From contig NW_026250403.1 of assembly GCF_024521635.1 (NCBI RefSeq), positions 806,001 to 870,000 of the forward strand: a DNA stretch of 64,000 nt, written 5' to 3'. The notes under the pieces are model-generated. The model did no database searches, was not told the DNA's origin, and worked only from the letters and a program-made list of their open reading frames with translations. The first letter of the stretch is position 1, and every line of letters starts with the position of its first letter. This DNA comes from Tricharina praecox (taxonomy: Eukaryota). The translations under genes and the position numbers were made by a program. This document shows, in pieces, positions 6,262 through 52,500 of this stretch.

Positions 6262-8118
6262 CTTGACTTGACTGCGTGCTTGTCTGCGTGCTTGTCTGCT
6301 GGTTGTTTGTGTGAAAGACACGTCGGTTGGATTGCGGCGGGTAGTTATTTAGGTATGTAGGGTCGGACAGGGGAGGAGTAGGTAGGGACCACCGGTAGTG
6401 TAGTGCAGTGTAGTTACATAGAGTACATGGTAGACATTCAGATCGTCAAAGAAACAAACCATGCACAGGTAACAAGTACTCTACTCTACTTACCTAGTAC
6501 GGTACATACCGTAGTGTACAGCCTGTACAGTCGTATCCGGACGACGAACGACCAACTACCGTAACGGAGAATTAGAGCCCCTCACTCACGACTCACGAGG
6601 GCACTTCTTTTAACTTTACGGTATTGAAGAAATGAAAGTTTTGCCGTTCTCAGCAGCCTGCCAAAGCTTTGGTTAGGCGCACATACTATGAAATATTGCT
6701 GGATTGGGCTGTCGCACCGCGCTAACAGGGATCCTCACATGTTCAATGTCCAATGTTCCATAAACTCCGTCTCAAGCTCATGGACACTGGACACTGGTCT
6801 TCCTCCCGCCCTCCCCCCACCTACAGACTCCCACGTCTACAAGCGCCATACACCTTCGGGCTTGTACAATTACCCAGGGTGAGCCTTGAGGTCGAGGGGG
6901 TCTCCGGAGATTCCGACGCCGGCTCGACGGAATCCTCCCCTCCCATTCACTCCACAAAGTAACAACTACCTATCCCAGTTCGAAGTAACTATGATACAAC
7001 CCCTGCGGAGTGGGGCATATGGAGTGGGGCATAAAACCGTCGGGACCCGGAAAGAGGGTATGTATGGTATGGTATGTATGATTTCGTCGGACGAAACTAG
7101 GCAGCCAGGCTCCAGCAGCTGTGTGTAAGCCGTGCTCCCAGCTGTAAGCTGTACATAAGTAAGCTGTAAGCTGTAAAGTAGAGTAGGCAGATCGAATCGA
7201 AGGCAGATCGAAGGCACGAAAAAAAGGTGAGGCCAGGTCAGGTCGTTGGTCAAGTCAAGGGCCGGCAAAGGCAGGCAAAGGCAAGGGCAGGCAAGGGCAA
7301 GGGCAATGAACGACAGTGAATGAATGAATGAACGATGCAAATGCAAATGCAACTGCAACTGCAATGCAGGTGCGGCTGCTAAACAAACCCTCGACGCAAC
7401 GCTTGCTTGGCGTGTTCCCCCCAACCTTGCGGACATAGCCGTGGGAACCACACTCACCATCTAAACACCCACTGACTGAACGGGAGCTCACATTTAAATA
7501 GTTGATGGAAGCGTAAGGAAGCCGCCTGCTGCCGTCCTTTTAAATACAAGCAGCGTGTTGTGGCCGCTCTGCTCTGATGTAGATAAGTCCTCAGCAGCAT
7601 ACCCTGTTCTAATCCCATTACTTTTCATTCGCTTTATCAATCAAGGCTCCCGCAATTGTAAACATCCTCCCCAACCCTCCACACAACTACAAATGCCGCC
7701 GTACAAACAAAGGGACCGTCATGGCCGTCATAGGAGACATTTAAACAGAATCCAGCCCTCACGAAAACAATCTCCACAAATGCAATAACCCACCTGGCGA
7801 GTATTAAGGTATGTGTAACTAAGCGCGCTCTGTAGCAGAACCCCCCCGAGTCTTCGTCGCTCGAAATGCACTAAACTCCTGTCTCCCCAGAACCCAGATG
7901 CTAAAAAGACTATGAAAGAAAAGAATAGGAACGAAAAATGATCCGCAATTGCCTAGTAATAGAATCCAGTCGAGAATCCATGTGAAGCCGGAAAGCAAAA
8001 GAAAGAAAGTAAGAACCATACGCTAACGCCAACCAGAAACCCCCTCAAGAACGTCGCATTGTATTGCGACCTGTGAACCATGGAGTCCCACACCGAAGGA
8101 TTTCAAAGGTCCTCCGAA

Positions 8119-11100
8119 TCACGCCTCACTGGTACTGTAGCCAGACTCGGTGCTCTTCGTTGGCTTCCTGTTTGCCTTACGCCAGCTACCTTTCTGGCTT
8201 CCGGAACTCCTATGCTGCGCCTGCGGGGCCTCCTCTTTTATAGCGGAAGAGACGGTATTTGAGGGGCTCGAGTTTTCGGTTAAACCCTGATCCTCCTTGC
8301 CAGAATTTCTCGTACCGCCCTTGGTAGCTGGATTGGTCCTTGCCTTGTGCTTGGTTAAGCGTCCGACGTTCTCCGGATGGGCAACAGTTGACAGCGGGCC
8401 TCCTTCATTCCCAGGGTCCAGACAAGTAGCATTTTGCTTGTAACTGTTAGAGCGAAGACGACGTTTTCCTTTACCAACGATATCATTCGTGGCACCAGCT
8501 TTTCCCTCTCCCTCTCCGTCGATCGGGCTGGATGGTTCGTCCTCCGTCGCGGAGGAAGAAGAGGTGAGACCTGGGACGAGTAGTTCGGCCCCACTGGCTT
8601 CTGCACTTGAGCCCTGCTTAACACCCAGGTTGTCATCATGCCCCCCCGACCTCATTTTGTGGCTTCTCCGGCGAGTGCGTCGGCGCCGTTTTTTCGTGTC
8701 CTGAGGATTATCAATGTCCGGATCGACATTCTCCATATCTTCGTGGCCGGTCTCCGGATACTCATGCCGATCGGTTATCGTTTCAGTGCTCGGAATCTCC
8801 GGTGAAGGGTAGTCTAAGTTGAATGCCGGCTCAACTGGTGTAAGTCTCGTATCTGTCTCCACCTGGATGGCTTGCGGTATCTCAGAGGATGGTTCCTCTT
8901 TTGTCACGATCGGAACCTCCAAAGCATCGCCTGAGTGCGTTTCATTGGAAGGGACTGTGCTAGGAGCCTCCACAGCTAGGACTTGACTCTCAGAAGTGGC
9001 CTGGGGAGGTGTCCAATCGTGCGCAATGATGGAAAGCCTCTTCGGAACAAACTCTTTTGCGTCCGGCTTCAACACTGATGATGACGATCCTGTCTTTGCG
9101 GAAGAATCCACATTCTCCGGCGTCACAACTGGTGCCTGCACTGGTGAGGCATTCTTCAGGATTCCATGGTTTGGCGCCGATATACGGGGGTTCTGCAAGG
9201 GGTGGAACTGGTATTCGGGATACCACACGGTTCTTCCAGGGAGGCTGAATGTAACCGCCGGGCGTGAAGACGCCGCTCGCTTAGATGATTCCGGGATTTC
9301 AATCTGTCTGGAAGATGAATCTTCACCATTTTTTGGAGCGTTGTCGGAATGGAGCGGGTCGAAAAGATCCTCGAGCAAGCGGGGTTCCTTCGATTCCGAT
9401 TTCGGCACAGATTCGTCGCGGTTACTCTGCGTTGACCAGAGCTGAAAGTACTTTCCTTCAAACTGCATCAGCTCCTCATGAGTTCCTTTCTCGATGATCT
9501 TGCCCTCCTTGATGACAACTATGAGATCCGCGCCCATTATCGTCGAAAGGCGATGCCTATATTCCTGTAAGCTGCTGATCATAGATATTTGGAGCCAGCA
9601 CTCACGCCACAATAAACATCGTCCGATCTGTGCCGAGTTTCCTCAGGGCCCCCTGGATCTGGCGTTCGGTTTCCATATCAATCATACTCGTCGCCTCATC
9701 CAGCAAGATGATCTTGGGGTTCTTCAGAATAGCTCTAGCTATCGAAACCTGTTTGAGTGGCGTCAGCCTTAGAGTTACGCTAGGAAAGATCAGCTGTGGA
9801 GTGCAGACTGTCTTATATAAGGCGCTGTGTGGTGCGCAAGAGGGACTTACTCTCTGCAATTCGCCGCCGGAAAGCTTTACGCCACGCTCGCCAACCTTGG
9901 AGTTGTAAGCATCCGGAAAAGTGAGGATCTTCTCGTGAATCGAGGCTGCGCGACACGCCTCGTACACATCTAGTTCGGACTTGTCAGTCATCGTTCCGTT
10001 TTATTCCTAAGCACCATCTCACCTTCGTCTGTGGCATCAAAGTTGGCATATTTGATGTTGTTCATAATCGTGTCATTGAACAATTGTGGGTCCTAATCGT
10101 GTCAGTACTTATGTCTAGCAAACTGACGGCTAACTAACCTGAGGCACAACCCCAATGTGCTCGCGCAGACTTGATAGTTTGATATCCCGGATATCGTGGC
10201 CGTCGATTTTGATAGCGCCAGAGGCGACGTCGTAGAAGCGGAAGAGGAGCTTCAAGCATGTTGTCTTTCCCCCACCGGTTTCCCCCACAAATGCCACCGA
10301 TTTACCCGCTGGTACATGGAGACTGACATCCGTAATCGCGGGTTTTCTAGAGTCATACGAGAAGCAAACGTTCTCAAAGTCGATCGTCCCTTCCAGTTTA
10401 TCCAGCACCAACGCACGCGGGTCATCCCGAACCGCTGACTCTGTCTGGAAGAGCTCCAACAGGCGCTCCGCATCGAGCATTTGAGTCTGAACCCTCCGAT
10501 AGAAGTTTGCGAAGAAGGATAGCGGGGCGGATAACTGAGCCCAGTACGACAGCAGAGTCACAAAGCTGCCGACTGGCTGCACTCCTGTGGTGACTTGATA
10601 GACAGCATAGAAGCAGGCAGCAAGGAGCCCCACCATGAAGATGAGACTCTGGCCCACATTGAGAACCGAGATCCCAATGAGCCATTTGCGCTCAGCTTTC
10701 TGGTAAAGGTTGATAGCTGTCATAATTGATCTCGTCAGCACCCATGATACGACGCTAGGGACACCGGAATGAAGTACCTCCACGAAAACGGTTCTGCTCG
10801 TAACTGATTCGGTTGAAGTACTGGAGCACGTTAGATCCTCTACAACTAACTATAGCTGGAGCAGCGGGACTTACGCTGACGGTGGCCCACGACGACACTG
10901 TTTCGATCAAGATGCTGACTTCATTTTTTCCTGCCTGCACTAATGTGAGTTTAGAATCTTCATAACTCTCGAGAGATCGTGACTGACATTATTAAGTTCC
11001 CTTCTCGTGCTGTTCCTCGCAATACTCAATTTGAATGTAGCGTAAAGGTACACCACCATGACGGAACCGACAATCAATGCCATATAGGTGCCGAAAACGA

Positions 11101-12683
11101 TGAAGAAGTACGCGAAGGCAACAAGGAGATCCGCAAGCATCGGAAAAACCTGAAAGAGGATTGTTTCGACGAATCCATTAACCGCACGGCCTTGCGCTAT
11201 CGAACTCCAAACATCACCGGTCTGCTTGTTGCTGTGAAAGTCATACGAAAGAGACATGACGTGGTTGTAAGCAGCGCCAGTCAGGGAACGATACGAGTAT
11301 TGTTCGATCGGCATCCAGAGGAAGTTTTGCAGGGCCTCAACGCCGGAAGCCGAATCCAGCCATCGCAATGCGACATAAAATGTCAACTGCACCCATGGGA
11401 TACGACCTGCAGTACCAGTTAGCACAAGTGTACATTCCAGCAAGTCCGATCACGGCCCCCCAGTCCATATCCGATTCACCAGCCCACTCTATCCATATGC
11501 AATGGGCCCCACGGGTCCGCGTGGTGTGTCCACCCGGACTGTGGTGCGTGATCCAGGCCGGAAAAGTGGCCTAAAGGTCTGAGAAATTGTGAGGCTTACC
11601 ACCGGCATCCATCAAGGAGTTGGTGACCACACCGAGTTGATGTGGGACCAGAACGTTCAGACCTCTTCCAGCAAGCAAGCATAACCCCACGAGGAACATG
11701 GTGAATTGCAGCCACCGGTCGCCTTGCGGCCAGACATAGGGCCAAAAAATCTGCGATAATCACTGCTGTCAGAAGAATCCTGCGTGTCCACCGGGCCCTC
11801 CCTGATACTGACCGAAAACGACTTTGCGTACGCCCACCAACTTCCACTCTCCTCTATCTTCTTCAGCATCCTCTCCTTAGCTTTTCTCATTGCTTCGGCC
11901 TCGCCATCGTCAGCCACGCCATCGGAATCCGACACCGATCCGTAAATAGAAGGCGAAGCCTGGCCGTCTTCCGAACAAAGCAAGCGAGCCGATTCCTCGC
12001 CAATGGGGTCGTCCGGATCCTGGCCCCAGACAGCCCACAGGCCTAGCGGCAAAACAAGGAACATCAGGAGCCGTGATCCTTCGACACAGAGTCTGGCAAT
12101 CTCGAAATTATTGGGGGCCTTGTTTGTCGCGAGAGAGAGACCAAACAAGGAGACTTCGGCCACCATGGAAAGGAGCCATGAGCCATAGTATGGATACCAG
12201 GTGGGGTTCCGCGTGTCGAGCAAAACAAGCTCCATGGATCCCCACAGCATTATGGACATCAAAAGGTAAACCTGGGACAGGGTCAGCCCAACGCCGCAAA
12301 GCTCAGTCGTGCTACCTCGGGTACACACCACATTATCTGACGAACTCCACCATCCACTCTCGGCCAAGGAGCGCAGGCACATCAACGCCGCTTCGCCAAC
12401 CTGCAAAAATCCAAAACTTGTCAGTCGAGAGCGCCAAACAAATATATATGTTCCCAATATCTTGGGACGAATGGAAAGCACTCACATAGCTCACAATGAC
12501 TGCCAATTGCAGCATGATGAACAATCGTTTCCGATGATCTCTCTGGGGTGCGGTCCGACTTGCGAGGGTGCACATAGTGATAACCTGGGATCCGACGAAC
12601 CAGACAAGAAATGCAGAAGGATACACATAGTGTATGAGGCGGATGACGTCGAAGACGGCATTCGTAGGAGAAAGTGCAGCCAT
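8119..12683 (-). CDS. Half-size ABC transporter, Hmt1/ABCB6 (heavy metal tolerance) type, multi-exon (~11 exons), with a long C-terminal extension
   Basis: Extra N-terminal TM region, then an ABC TMD (FWPYVWP, FHSNKQTG, LLSYWAQLSAPL). The NBD has Walker A GETGGGKTT, Q-loop VVPQD, signature LSGGELQR, Walker B IILLDEATS and H-loop AHRLST. All traced introns are GT-AG. Confidence 0.92.
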
Positions 12684-48810: not shown

Positions 48811-49504
48811 GGTAGCAAGGGACTCCAAATACCGGTTCTCGCCGTATATTTGGGCACTAGGAAGAAGTTCCGGCCGCACGCTCTGCGTGTCTGCGTGCCT
48901 GTCTGCGTGCCCACCTGCTGTTCTGATGCGCGTTTGTGTTTGCACCGGTCGGTATCGACAGTGACAGAACTATATAAAACGGTCACGGTCACGGAACAAC
49001 ATGAGAACAAGCGGAAGAAGGAAAGAAAACAGAAGAAGAAGAAGGATTAGACGACCAAGAAAAAGGATTGTCGCCCACGAAACGAGACAGGACCAGACAA
49101 AGGAACAAGTCATAGAGGGCATGTATGATATATCCATACCTCACCTCGCGTACCTACTTGCTTTGGCTTCGTATCATACAAATTGAAGTACCTACCGTAC
49201 ACTACATAAGAAGTAGCAATTTGCAAATTGTGTGCCCGCGCATAACAGAAAGCATATCTAAGGAAAGAAGTAAAAAAAAAATCCAAAAAAAAGAAGGTGG
49301 CTGGTACACAACACACGACCTGCAGTTCCTCGAGAGAAAAAAGTCAAGTCCGAGGGAACGGAAGGGGGAAAAAAAGATCGAAGAAAGAACGGCAAAGAAG
49401 AACTCTCACAAGGCAGCGGTAACTGCCGTTTGATCGCTTTTGGCTGCAAAGGAAGAAAGGGAGGATTATTGGGGAATACATACATGTTCCAGCGATGAGC
49501 AGCT

Positions 49505-52500
49505 ATGACCCGCCACCATAACATTGCCTTCCGTCTTCCTCCTGATGGCGATGTCCATTTTAGCACTGGCACTGGCCGTACTGCTGCTGCTGCTGTCGCT
49601 GCTGCAGGCGAAGCCAGTACTGCGGCTTCTGGAGGAGCCCCGTTTCCTGGCCGTGGCCGGAGAGAACCAGACGATGCAGATTGCGGGCGGGGATCCGTCC
49701 CGGTTCCTGACCATCGTTCTTTTCCTGACCGACGCCGTCCACGTCACTCTGCTGTCCCTTTCCACAGAGTCCTCCAGCACGGCTATCGCGACGAAACAGA
49801 AACAACACAGCAGCAGAAGAAGAAGCATCCTCTATTGTCCCACAAACTCGTGGCGCTCGTCCCCCATGACACCCTGCCACTGAGTCCCAGTAGAAATATC
49901 CCACCACGTCTCTTCGGCGCCGCCGGGAGAAGTGGCATCAACAACAACCGCCAGGAAATCCTCCCGCCATCGAATCCCGAGATTGATCCACCAACTTTAT
50001 CCTCCCTCACGTCTGTGAGCGAGTCCGACGATTCGGAACGACTCCGGAAACTCCTCCGCACCCGCCATCCGCTATTTCGCAGCCGACCCGCCGTTCTCGC
50101 AGGCGTTGAAGTAGAAAACCTCGCTTCTTCGAAAGGGGACGCCTTTCGCGATCAGCAGAGGCTCGCCGCAACGGCCCATCGGAGCCGATCCGTCGTCGCC
50201 CCATCCTCCTACTCCTCCTCCGTCACCGCCTCCGAAATGATACGAAAACGAGTAGCGACTGGGGAGGAGTTGTTTGTCACGCCCGCGGATCCCACCTCAC
50301 CGGCGTTCGAAACGGAAAGGCCGAACAGCGCCGGCGGCATGGCGGGCATAAACGGGTTCCGCGACTTCGCACCGCGCCCACGGAACGAGTATGTCCCGCC
50401 GAAGGCTCCTGACGATAGCGCTCGGAGGGAGAGGGAGCGGGAAAGGGAGCGTCTGCGAGAGGAGGCGGAACTGGCCGAAAAGTTACGAAAAAAGGAACTT
50501 AAGGGTCGAACCAGCAAAGCGAATCGGGAATTCTTCGGGCGAAAAGCATCGACACCGGGCAAGGACAAGCACGGCGATGGCGAATGGGCTTCCCCGAGTC
50601 CCGATGGCAGGGCGTCGGAAGAGGCCCGGAGACCAGGAGGTGTCAAATCAACCCTGCCTCGCCGGACATCCAGCTTGAGTTTGAAATCCAACAGGGAGGG
50701 CGAGCCTCTTTTCCATGGCGTGCAAAAGCGAACTGACGGACGCTCGACTCGCTCCCCCGCCAGTACTCGAGACGCTCGTGATGCAATCCGGGAACCGCGG
50801 CCGACGTCAGCGGCGTCGGCAGCGTCGGCAACGTCGGCAACCAGCGCGTCGAGTGTCGAGCGCGAGCGACGAAGGACTCTCACATCACCCGGCATCCCCA
50901 AACACTCGAGGATCCCAGCTTCTGCAAGCCCGTCGGTATCGCGACCGGGCTCGCAACAAGACCGTCGCACGGCTTCCACGATCTCGTCCGCCACCGAACG
51001 GCGACCACTGCGCAACCCTCCCTCTTCGGGCTCGTCCGTCAGCCGCTCATCCGAGTCCTCATCGCAACGCGGCGGTTCCCAACACGGTCGCAGCGAAAGC
51101 CATCCCAACCCCTCGCTACACGTCGAAAAGAGAGCGATCCCGAAGCCGTCGCCCGTGGGCGGGAGAGGATCACATGCCTCCCACATGAGGAGATCCGAAA
51201 GCGTTCCGTCGACATCGTTTTCGATGCCGATGCCAGGGTCGAATGGTTTCAGCCGCACACCGAGCCTCAAGACGGACAAGTCGAGCGAGGGTTCGGAGAA
51301 AGCAGGTGACGTCGATGTCACGCCCTCGGAGCTAGGCGACGACGACGATGACGATGACGACCGTCCCGATATGGACTCACCCTCGGTGCGCAAGATGCGT
51401 GGCAACTCGATCGATTCCTTCCTTGGACTCGATTCCAAACAGACCACAGCAGCAAACACGGCCGCTATACTCGATACGCTTTCACCAATCGACACCAACG
51501 CAATGCCCGTGTCCAATTCGGACGACAGCAAACTCGAGGAGCCGATTTTGAGCCCCACTTTGAGTGACTACGGACTCGCAAGCTCCGGTTCCTCCGAGTC
51601 TCCGCTCTACGATCGCTCGACCGGAAAACCGAAGACATTCCCGAAACCCAAGAGTGCGCTTGAAGACGACGACGACGACCTGACCCCTCTCGAGGAATTG
51701 CAACGGAAGGACCGCGAATACCAAGAACTCCTCAATCCATCAAAGAACGACGATGAAGAAGATACCTACCAGCTGCTTGGCGGCAGCAGGCAGTACGAGC
51801 CCATCACGAACCGGCCCGTCCGACCCAAGGCGGAAGCGGCAGCTGGCGACAGGAAGAGAGATCGGGAAAAGAACGCGCACGAGCAGCTCATGAACCGATT
51901 GAAGACTCTCCACATGGAGCTCAGGAGCGCACGCAGGGGCATCGACTACATCGAGCGGCGGTTGAACGGTGTCGGATCGAGCGACGAGGGCGAGTGGGTG
52001 GACGATGAGGACGAACCGTCAGAGGGCATTGTAACTCGCATCAAGGCTGAAGAGCTCAGACAACGCCAACGATTGAGAGCCGAGCAAGCTGAAGCTGCTG
52101 CTGCTGCTGCTGCCGCCGCTGTCGAACCGGAAGTGCTGCGTCCCTATGAGCCGTCGACGGTCGTGAAGGTGGGAACAGTGGGGTGCCAGCTCGCCCTGCT
52201 GTGGTTTTTGCTGGAGATCTATTTCTTGTAAGTTGACAGCTAGTCAGGTCACTCCCCACCCACCCCGCAGAACGAAGCGAGCTAACGTGATGATCAACAA
52301 CAGCTACAAAGCCTTCCCGCCGTCGATATCGTCTACGCCCGTATACTCCGCCTCCATCCCGACCTTTGGCTCGCAGGTCGTCCACACCGTGACCGACAGC
52401 TTCGTCTCTCTGTTCCGGGGAGTTTTTGTCGGCTCCTTCGGCGCCATCTTCACGATCCTGAGCTTCTTCGCGGCCGTCATCGCCAAATTCACTGGCCTCT

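Follow-up and report, generated by a model that had tools for sequence, protein, structure and literature searches.

A conserved PAM2-type motif in the disordered tail of an Hmt1-type ABC half-transporter of Tricharina praecox, a candidate docking site for Pab1

The known hosts of PAM2 motifs are soluble translation and decay regulators (Paip2, Paip1, ataxin-2 and eRF3) and the peripheral endosomal adaptor Upa1, and in these proteins, as in Upa2, the motif is a 12-residue element in a disordered setting, in which Leu is followed by Ala at +4, Phe at +7 and Pro at +9. The consensus is quoted as xxLNxxAxEFxP in the available text of a study on Ustilago maydis (PMC4466420), and the accessible part of a structural report on the Pab1-Upa1 contact gives the crucial Leu together with Phe at +7, Ala at +4 and Pro at +9 as contacts, with hydrogen bonds from N135/A136 and P141 (PMC11572963). 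As far as the available text of the U. maydis study describes it, Upa1 is a peripheral protein held by its FYVE domain and acts chiefly via PAM2-like motifs that bind Rrm4, and its validated PAM2 is dispensable for Upa1 function (PMC4466420), so that a genuine PAM2 need not give a strong phenotype. On the transporter side, the closest described proteins are S. pombe Hmt1, C. elegans HMT-1 and human ABCB6, each with one TMD, one NBD and, ahead of them, a hydrophobic extension at the N-terminus. To our knowledge, S. pombe Hmt1 has no long tail. The hydrophobic N-terminal extension is given as a feature of HMT-1-type half-transporters in the accessible part of PMC2944878, the fungal ABC-B IV group is linked to heavy-metal resistance and a vacuolar membrane location in that of PMC4692070, and a long tail is not mentioned for this transporter group in the available portions of PMC4692070, PMC2944878, PMC6077975 and PMC11143254.

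The stretch of T. praecox DNA analyzed here (64 kb, hereafter the window) carries a gene of this transporter type on its minus strand. Exon positions came from a tblastn comparison with full-length orthologues and a search for GT..AG boundaries and were then refined by splice joints in RNA contigs, which gave the following working model.

8119..12683, minus strand: Hmt1/HMT-1-type ABC half-transporter gene, working model with 12 exons and 1249 aa
12683-12486, 12400-12329, 12271-11813, 11750-11600, 11406-10988 and 10934-10875, minus strand: exons 1-6 (tblastn, GT..AG, RNA joints)
10820-10778, 10716-10139, 10092-10023, 9969-9851, 9748-9606 and 9556-8119, minus strand: exons 7-12 (tblastn, GT..AG, RNA joints)
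8119..9556, minus strand: last exon, with the C-terminal end of the NBD (to YFQLW, 9436-9450), the entire tail and the stop codon
8119-8121, minus strand: stop codon

A matching joint is present in the RNA contigs for 8 of the 11 introns; intron 12272-12328 is supported by a single low-depth joint, and the contigs contain no joint for introns 12401-12485 and 10935-10987. The motif discussed below lies inside one long open frame (8119-9642, minus strand) that begins with the end of the NBD (HRLSTIMGADLIVV...YFQLW) and continues into the tail. RNA contig X1 record 1 spans 7921-9969, and X2 record 6 joins 7800-9555 to 9605-9748; neither has a joint within the last exon. Both contigs, which come from two studies, carry sense-strand splice joints and show the tail to be continuous with the spliced NBD exons, and the motif is transcribed in frame with the NBD. 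Annotated proteins from Pyronema, Tuber, Morchella and Polytolypa, among others, show NBD and tail in the same in-frame arrangement. Separately, a seawater metatranscriptome (X3) holds one 181-nt contig that covers 9139-9319 only, and it was left out of the gene-model evidence.

The preliminary description of this locus assigned the host protein to the Hmt1-type ABC half-transporters, and this is borne out by the Pfam hits, the half-molecule layout and the N-terminal extension. Pfam finds one ABC_membrane domain (10943-11449) and one ABC_tran domain (10133-10849) on the exons, and the model contains a single Walker A (residue 612), a single LSGG (716) and a single Walker B (736), which makes it a half-molecule with one TMD and one NBD. 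Four hydrophobic 19-mers within residues 23-166 constitute the N-terminal hydrophobic extension, and the N-terminus of the model aligns with residues 50-292 of the Pyronema orthologue. Among the names that databases give to orthologues are 'Similar to Heavy metal tolerance protein Q02592' and 'vacuolar membrane transporter Hmt1'. If the annotation of S. pombe Hmt1 carries over, the protein may reside in vacuolar/endolysosomal membranes and may transport metal or phytochelatin. Unlike Hmt1, HMT-1 and ABCB6 as described, the long-tailed fungal orthologues considered here possess a disordered C-terminal tail of 150-530 residues together with a PAM2 block.

In the T. praecox protein, the tail and the islands that surround the motif are located as follows.

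8122..9435, minus strand: disordered, putatively cytosolic tail downstream of the NBD, about 435 aa past YFQLWSTQ
9358..9378, minus strand: LLEDLFD island just past the NBD, its 'DL' conserved across classes
9238..9261, minus strand: PAVTFSLP island, found in Pezizomycete-type tails only
9151..9192, minus strand: NPRISAPNHGILKN island with a [GS]IL[KR] element, found in Pezizomycete-type tails only
8665..8694, minus strand: arginine cluster KKRRRRTRRR, a basic cluster in 21 of 35 tails
8452..8466, minus strand: KRRLR (KRRFR-type) basic island, in 16 of 35 tails

The NBD of this transporter type faces the cytosol, so the tail should be cytosolic as well, judging from ABC exporter topology. The low-complexity Ser/Pro setting that had been described is confirmed: S (59) and P (41) lead the residue counts of the tail, there is no hydrophobic segment (hydropathy over 19 residues peaks at 0.46), and the tail is predicted to be disordered. 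In an AlphaFold2 model built from a 12-sequence alignment, pLDDT is below 50 in 390 of 487 residues and there is no secondary structure beyond residue 72, the last element being a three-residue helix at 70-72. The sole block of the tail with a pLDDT above 52 is residues 171-180, which is the motif, at 62. Among the islands, LLEDLFD is occupied in 34 rows of a 35-tail alignment, of which 33 have D and 25 have L, and the pattern [ILVF][ILV][NED][DQ]L is found in 14 of the 35 tails. V, F, S, L and P of PAVTFSLP are invariant in seven of seven close tails, as are N, P, R, P, H, G, I, L, K and N of the NPRISAPNHGILKN island; [NTAS]V[STA]F[SA] is present in 15 of the 35 tails. The KKRRRRTRRR columns have R in 21-29 of 33-35 rows. 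Docking patterns for PP1 (Glc7) are [GS]IL[KR] for SILK and [RK]x(0,1)[VI]x[FW] for RVxF. The HGILKN stretch of the NPRISAPNHGILKN island fits the SILK pattern, which is found in 17 of the 35 tails. The VxF island (RPAVTF, HPNVSF, QPTVTF) has no basic residue at position -1 or -2, unlike RVxF, and it precedes the SILK-like element, whereas PP1 motifs usually come the other way round.

The motif itself was located by translation and characterized by Pfam, alignments, a shuffle test and a PDB search.

9043..9078, minus strand: PAM2-type motif SVLKPDAKEFVP
9043-9072, minus strand: conserved core LKPDAKEFVP, residues 933-942 of the 1249-aa model

Minus-strand translation of 9043-9078 returns SVLKPDAKEFVP exactly as had been claimed, approximately 120 residues into the tail downstream of the NBD. 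Five of the six positions of xxLNxxAxEFxP agree (L3, A7, E9, F10 and P12), with K in place of N at position 4, and the offsets (L at 0, A at +4, F at +7, P at +9) are those of the Upa1-Pab1 contacts, with D at +3. The Pfam PAM2 scan that had been proposed has a mixed outcome: PAM2 (PF07145) is the sole Pfam-A family returned for the last exon (E 0.02), and its 15 bits do not reach the gathering score of 20. The same family matches 13 of 35 homologues at E<=1, with a best E of 0.0086. When a 22-aa query around the motif was compared with 177,635 distinct PDB sequences, the single match was 1jgn_B, identical at 9 of 12 positions; its E of 0.96 is not significant alone, and a 34-aa query gave no match to the PDB sequences. 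The ligand in 1jgn is the Paip2 PAM2 peptide, listed together with human PABP in the available text of PMC6770515. The PAM2-like character that had been proposed is supported. A search of the ESM Atlas with the tail gave no usable match. Compared with the PAM2 motifs of known PABP partners, the motif in the window differs in having K/R for N at position 4 and in its sub-threshold Pfam score. Within the 35-tail alignment, most carriers have K or R at position 4, and N is found in Neurospora only, where the block reads LNPAAPTFTP. When the 439-aa tail was shuffled 200,000 times, the pattern L...A.EF.P arose in 27 of the shuffles, and it has no second occurrence in a six-frame translation of the window.

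Orthologues were retrieved with a full-length orthologue as the query, with seed words taken from the N-terminal 500 residues and scoring over the whole protein including the tail. The block is present in 20 of 29 orthologues, namely all 20 with a tail of at least 150 aa, as counted with a broad regular expression that was fitted after the variants had been seen; strict L...A.EF.P matches 11 of the 29. In the transporter cores of these orthologues, the block has no match. Nine orthologues lack the motif, which is therefore not essential to the transporter: two are annotated as partial (P0168 and P0175), P0193 is a divergent 1202-aa record that stops 7 residues past the last NBD motif, and the remaining six make up two short-tailed clades (Xylariales/Microdochium and a four-member long-branch clade). 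The seven tails of close relatives all share L, K, D, A, E, F and P, although they are otherwise only ∼36% identical. Across the 35-tail alignment, the residues are kept as L 29, K 30, P 32, D 28, A 32, E 33, F 34, V 22 and P 35 of 35, with W or F at the Leu position in the other six tails, and the block is the sole contiguous run beyond the NBD with at least 80% conservation. We take the carriers, on the basis of organism names in the search records, to belong to the Pezizomycetes, Eurotiomycetes, Lecanoromycetes, Leotiomycetes, Geoglossomycetes and Sordariomycetes. The preliminary description had set as a test whether the island is conserved while its flanks diverge, and that is clearly the case in the seven close tails, the 35-tail alignment and the 20 of 29 orthologues; conservation among Pezizomycotina orthologues is also broader than it had supposed. 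Across Pezizomycotina classes, the block alone is universal in these tails. That it is kept across six classes while its surroundings have diverged argues for selection on an overlooked interaction.

In our reading, the motif is probably a genuine, ancient SLiM of the PAM2 class in the disordered tail of a fungal group-IV ABC-B half-transporter, where it would dock the MLLE domain of Pab1. The Rrm4 MLLE had also been named as a possible partner; we rejected it because Rrm4 is reported as absent from Ascomycota, the Rrm4/Upa2 machinery having most likely been lost there according to the available text of two sources (10.1101/467787; PMC7550108). With Rrm4 set aside, Pab1 is the expected MLLE partner and a Pab1 dock the most likely role for the motif. 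The tail, on the NBD side of the membrane, would present the motif in the cytosol, where it may bind the Pab1 MLLE domain as the PAM2 peptides of Paip2 and Upa1 do, and a vacuolar/endolysosomal pump would in this way be physically coupled to Pab1-bound mRNPs. Such a protein would resemble Upa1, as the accessible part of PMC4466420 portrays it, in being associated with endolysosomal membranes and in offering a Pab1-docking PAM2 (here putative) to the cytosol. It is unlike Upa1 in being an integral ABC pump with a single PAM2 of canonical type, and no FxY PAM2-like motif was noted.

Binding of Pab1 might also serve regulation and not the tethering of mRNPs to a membrane, a reading that we regard as possible, if rather doubtful. 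Under metal stress, the tail could compete for Pab1 with Pan3, eRF3 or Pbp1 in the vicinity of the vacuole, or the nascent tail could recruit Pab1 and so tune the translation of the transporter's own mRNA, or its stability. PAM2 proteins generally regulate translation and deadenylation, as stated in the available portions of PMC4466420 and PMC11572963, and the conserved Arg-rich clusters of the tail could contact RNA, both of which speak for regulation; however, regulation and tethering need the same binding step, and the present evidence does not separate them. A conserved functional SLiM whose partner is something other than the Pab1 MLLE, with the likeness to PAM2 being convergent, strikes us as unlikely. 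Such a motif might engage an adaptor for sorting or trafficking, a scaffold for a kinase or phosphatase, or, within the protein itself, a contact that regulates the NBD. The score below the Pfam threshold, the K/R at a position where N is typical, and the two further invariant islands that accompany the motif in Pezizomycetes all point in that direction, but the four positions that make contact with the MLLE domain (L, A, F and P) are all right in both residue and spacing, the only look-alike in the PDB is a bona fide PAM2 ligand, and the Neurospora block swings to the canonical LN...A..F.P. A chance look-alike, or a gene-model artifact in which the tail is foreign to the transporter, is very improbable: Ser/Pro-rich disorder does throw up short motifs by chance and the Pfam and PDB scores are each insignificant, but this reading is effectively refuted by the shuffles, the retention of the block in 20 of 20 long-tailed orthologues with diverging flanks, the continuous frame from the NBD with RNA contigs tying the tail to spliced NBD exons, and the same layout in the annotated proteins of other genera.

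A PAM2-class motif that docks Pab1 would be new for this kind of host, a polytopic transporter, whereas the established partners are soluble factors or, in Upa1, a peripheral adaptor. Among the literature matches listed, we found no report of a PAM2 motif on an ABC transporter or on any polytopic transporter, in keeping with the earlier statement that none was known on ABC transporters; the 14 U. maydis PAM2 candidates mentioned in the available text of PMC4466420 might include a transporter. The membrane location and the downstream effect of Pab1 docking are putative, and we consider it quite unlikely, though worth stating, that the transporter acts as an integral-membrane adaptor that hitches Pab1-bound mRNPs to endolysosomal/vacuolar membranes in Pezizomycotina. 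Since the Rrm4/Upa2 machinery, which serves this purpose in basidiomycetes, is reported as missing from ascomycetes, the transporter could fill that gap, or it could couple metal or vacuole status to local translation. The Neurospora orthologue carries a variant of the motif, which makes genetics and live imaging feasible. The motif offers a candidate mechanism for the attachment of poly(A) mRNPs to endomembranes in ascomycetes without Rrm4 and Upa2; it hints that a membrane pump may be linked to messenger RNA in a way not reported so far, and it suggests that the Hmt1-type pumps of filamentous fungi may have a second, non-transport role.

Translation of the minus strand confirms the PAM2-like motif that the preliminary description placed in the transporter tail: positions 9043-9078 read SVLKPDAKEFVP. 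The motif lies in a frame that opens with the end of the NBD, HRLSTIMGADLIVV...GKYFQLW, and then continues for ∼435 residues before the stop.

Features of the transporter gene and its tail
10943-11449, minus-strand gene, ABC_membrane domain (Pfam)
10133-10849, minus-strand gene, ABC_tran domain (Pfam)
8119-9642, minus, open frame of 507 codons with its stop at 8119-8121
9238-9261, minus, PAVTFSLP island, invariant in Pezizomycete-type tails only
9151-9192, minus, NPRxxxPxHGILKN island, invariant in Pezizomycete-type tails only
8665-8694, minus, KKRRRRTRRR cluster downstream of the motif, found in 21 of 35 tails
8452-8466, minus, KRRFR-type cluster downstream of the motif, found in 16 of 35 tails

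The gene model, built from exons located by tblastn searches with full-length orthologues together with a scan for GT..AG borders, comprises 12 exons and 1249 residues (ATG at 12683 to the stop at 8119, minus strand). It contains a single Walker A (residue 612), LSGG (716), and Walker B (736), as well as four hydrophobic segments within the first 170 residues and none in the tail, matching the HMT-1/Hmt1/ABCB6 architecture as given in the excerpted text of PMC2944878. The source names given to orthologues include "Similar to Heavy metal tolerance protein; acc. no. Q02592" for that of Pyronema omphalodes, as well as "vacuolar membrane transporter Hmt1". Taken with the Pfam domains, these features uphold the assignment of the host as an Hmt1-type ABC transporter. 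By its core, the closest named relative is Sphaerosporella brunnea (67% identity over 806 columns), which assigns the window to a Pyronemataceae-like fungus within the Pezizales. The gene is surrounded by ordinary nuclear genes of fungi, encoding homoserine dehydrogenase, RNase H2 subunit B, Mcm10, Ish1, and a Surp-module protein, and a 910-codon open frame at 49499-52228 on the plus strand matches no Pfam family at E<=1e-5.

Contigs of two runs from two studies, X1 and X2, align to the gene. Their CT..AC joints on the plus strand match GT..AG introns of the minus-strand gene, and the contigs are therefore RNA-derived. One X2 contig (record 6) runs over 7800-9555 and is joined to 9605-9748, while one from X1 (record 1) runs over 7921-9969 and then splices at 9969|10023 and 10091|10138; sense transcripts therefore carry the tail in one piece with spliced NBD exons, uninterrupted by any joint. 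Matching RNA joints were found for 8 of the 11 model introns. Introns 12401-12485 and 10935-10987 have none in the X1 and X2 contigs, which makes the N-terminal half of the model less certain; this has no bearing on the tail motif. The main X1 contig keeps sense introns 9557-9605 and 9749-9850, both spliced out in X2 contigs, suggesting that the X1 library contains transcripts with retained introns or incompletely processed RNA. At its end at 7921, on the 3′ side of the gene, an X1 contig also carries 204 further letters without a match to the window, which may reflect an intron in the 3′ UTR or a junction with sequence lying beyond the window. Two plus-strand GT..AG joints lie inside the gene, one at 10259-10351 (skipping 91 nt, X2 only) and one at 10944-10997 (skipping 52 nt, in both X1 and X2, with shorter sides of 70 and 167 letters). 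Because neither fits the sense reading frame, they suggest that a spliced antisense transcript spans the TMD/NBD exons.

The tail is predicted to be largely disordered. Given the last-exon product and an alignment of 12 sequences, AlphaFold2 returned a mean pLDDT of 47, with 390 of 487 residues below 50, and restricted predicted structure to the NBD remnant (12-55) save for a three-residue helix at 70-72. Within the tail, pLDDT exceeds 52 in just one ten-residue block, the motif (residues 171-180, pLDDT 62).

Tail-seeded searches returned two long relatives and four of last-exon length. The seven-row alignment of close tails shows ∼36% identity, with invariant islands VxFSLP, NPRxxxPxHGILKN, and LKxDAxEFxP. 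In distant tails, drawn from a profile search against 1.84 billion representatives, the motif is the only recognizable shared element, in forms including SSLKPDAREFVP, SQLKPEAKEFVP, KKWKPDAPEFVP, and KTWRPDAPEFVP. A less tail-dependent sample was obtained with the full-length Pyronema orthologue as the query, with seed words from the N-terminal 500 residues and scoring on the whole protein, tail included; it comprised 29 matches at E < 1e-120. The block is present in 20 of these, 11 with the strict pattern L...A.EF.P and nine with variants (among them WKPDAPEFIP, LKADTPEFVP, WKPDAPDFVP, and LNPAAPTFTP); because the broad pattern was written after the variants had been seen, the more conservative figure is the strict one. 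Carriers are exactly the orthologues with a tail of at least 150 aa, and none of the 29 transporter cores matches the pattern. The carriers identified by record name are Pyronema, Trichophaea, Rhizina, Morchella, three Tuber species, Geopyxis, Polytolypa, Myotisia, Letrouitia, Pycnora, Lasallia, Pseudogymnoascus, Glutinoglossum, and Neurospora, which we take to represent six classes (Pezizomycetes, Eurotiomycetes, Lecanoromycetes, Leotiomycetes, Geoglossomycetes, and Sordariomycetes). Two of the nine non-carriers are annotated as partial (Sphaerosporella, Pleopsidium), two are short-tailed Xylariales/Microdochium records, four (Caeruleum, Piccolia, Friedmanniomyces, Teratosphaeriaceae) group in a long-branch clade whose short tail is of another type, and P0193, a divergent record of 1202 aa, stops 7 residues past the last NBD motif. 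On a maximum-likelihood core tree that omits P0178 (a near-duplicate), the divergent P0193, and P0009 (same cluster as Pyronema P0156), the block label requires five changes, of which the starred branches force at least four.

In a 35-tail alignment, which takes in rows recruited by tail similarity, L is present in 29 rows, K in 30, P in 32, D in 28, A in 32, E in 33, F in 34, V in 22, and the final P in all 35; past the NBD, conservation of 80% is attained in no other contiguous run. The expectation of a conserved island between diverging flanks is thus borne out. Among 200,000 shuffles that kept the composition of the tail, L...A.EF.P arose in 27, and a six-frame translation of the whole window contains no second instance. 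We regard the motif as almost certainly a real, selected SLiM.

Its identity as PAM2 is less secure. PAM2 (PF07145) is the sole Pfam-A family on the last exon (residues 159-172, E 0.02), and its 15 bits, short of the gathering score of 20, count against it. Position 4 also counts against PAM2, being basic in most carriers, where the ELM pattern expects N or S; the family does toggle to N there, as Neurospora has LNPAAPTFTP. Against the consensus xxLNxxAxEFxP quoted in the available text of PMC4466420, L3, A7, E9, F10, and P12 agree and position 4 is K. In the crystallized complex of U. maydis MLLE(Pab1) and PAM2(Upa1), as described in PMC11572963, the crucial L132 and F139 occupy two hydrophobic pockets and N135/A136 and P141 form hydrogen bonds; at these contact offsets the window motif has L, D, A, F, and P. 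When 177,635 PDB sequences were searched with 22 residues around the motif, the sole match was 1jgn_B (9 of 12 identical, E 0.96), named "polyadenylate-binding protein-interacting protein 2", and the 1jgn peptide appears as a ligand of human PABP in a table of PMC6770515. A stand-in PABP from a metatranscriptome contig, with ascomycete PABPs as its nearest Atlas clusters, carries an MLLE at 370-435 (Pfam E 8.6e-30), for which a 34-row alignment was built. Judged from sequence, the motif is probably a Pab1/MLLE dock.

In the reading with the most support, motif anatomy and conservation suggest that a disordered cytosolic tail would offer PAM2 to the Pab1 MLLE. By annotation transfer, the transporter would reside in a vacuolar or endolysosomal membrane; PMC4692070 puts fungal ABC-B group IV proteins, described as conferring heavy-metal resistance, at the vacuolar membrane, and PMC6077975 assigns C. 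elegans HMT-1 to the endosomal-recycling system. Such an arrangement could bring poly(A) mRNPs to the membrane, or Pab1 to the pump. The original interpretation is supported in part: it holds for the PAM2-like motif, its host, and the conserved island. Rrm4 is an unlikely partner because the Rrm4/Upa2 machinery is reported, in the portions available of 10.1101/467787 and PMC7550108, as most likely lost in Ascomycota. The available portions of this literature name no ascomycete membrane adaptor. Two points counsel caution: the Upa1 PAM2 itself binds Pab1, yet is described in PMC4466420 as dispensable for Upa1 function, and at least two clades have lost the transporter motif. That the transporter is an mRNP membrane adaptor in ascomycetes is the boldest reading allowed, and we consider it improbable.

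The motif class and the transporter family are both already known. We found no description of PAM2 on an ABC transporter or other polytopic membrane protein in the literature searched, which excluded most subscription journals, and as far as we have seen, the combination and its retention over six Pezizomycotina classes are new.

The two conserved arginine clusters are candidate NLS-like elements or arginine-rich elements that bind RNA. The PAVTFSLP and NPRxxxPxHGILKN islands are both located upstream of PAM2. PP1/Glc7 docking patterns include "SILK", [GS]IL[KR], and "RVxF"; HGILKN fits the former, and VTF is a loose fit to the latter, with the basic residue missing. We are cautious about PP1/Glc7 docking because of this missing residue and because VxF precedes SILK. 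If the islands are real docking motifs, the tail would serve as a platform for several SLiMs.
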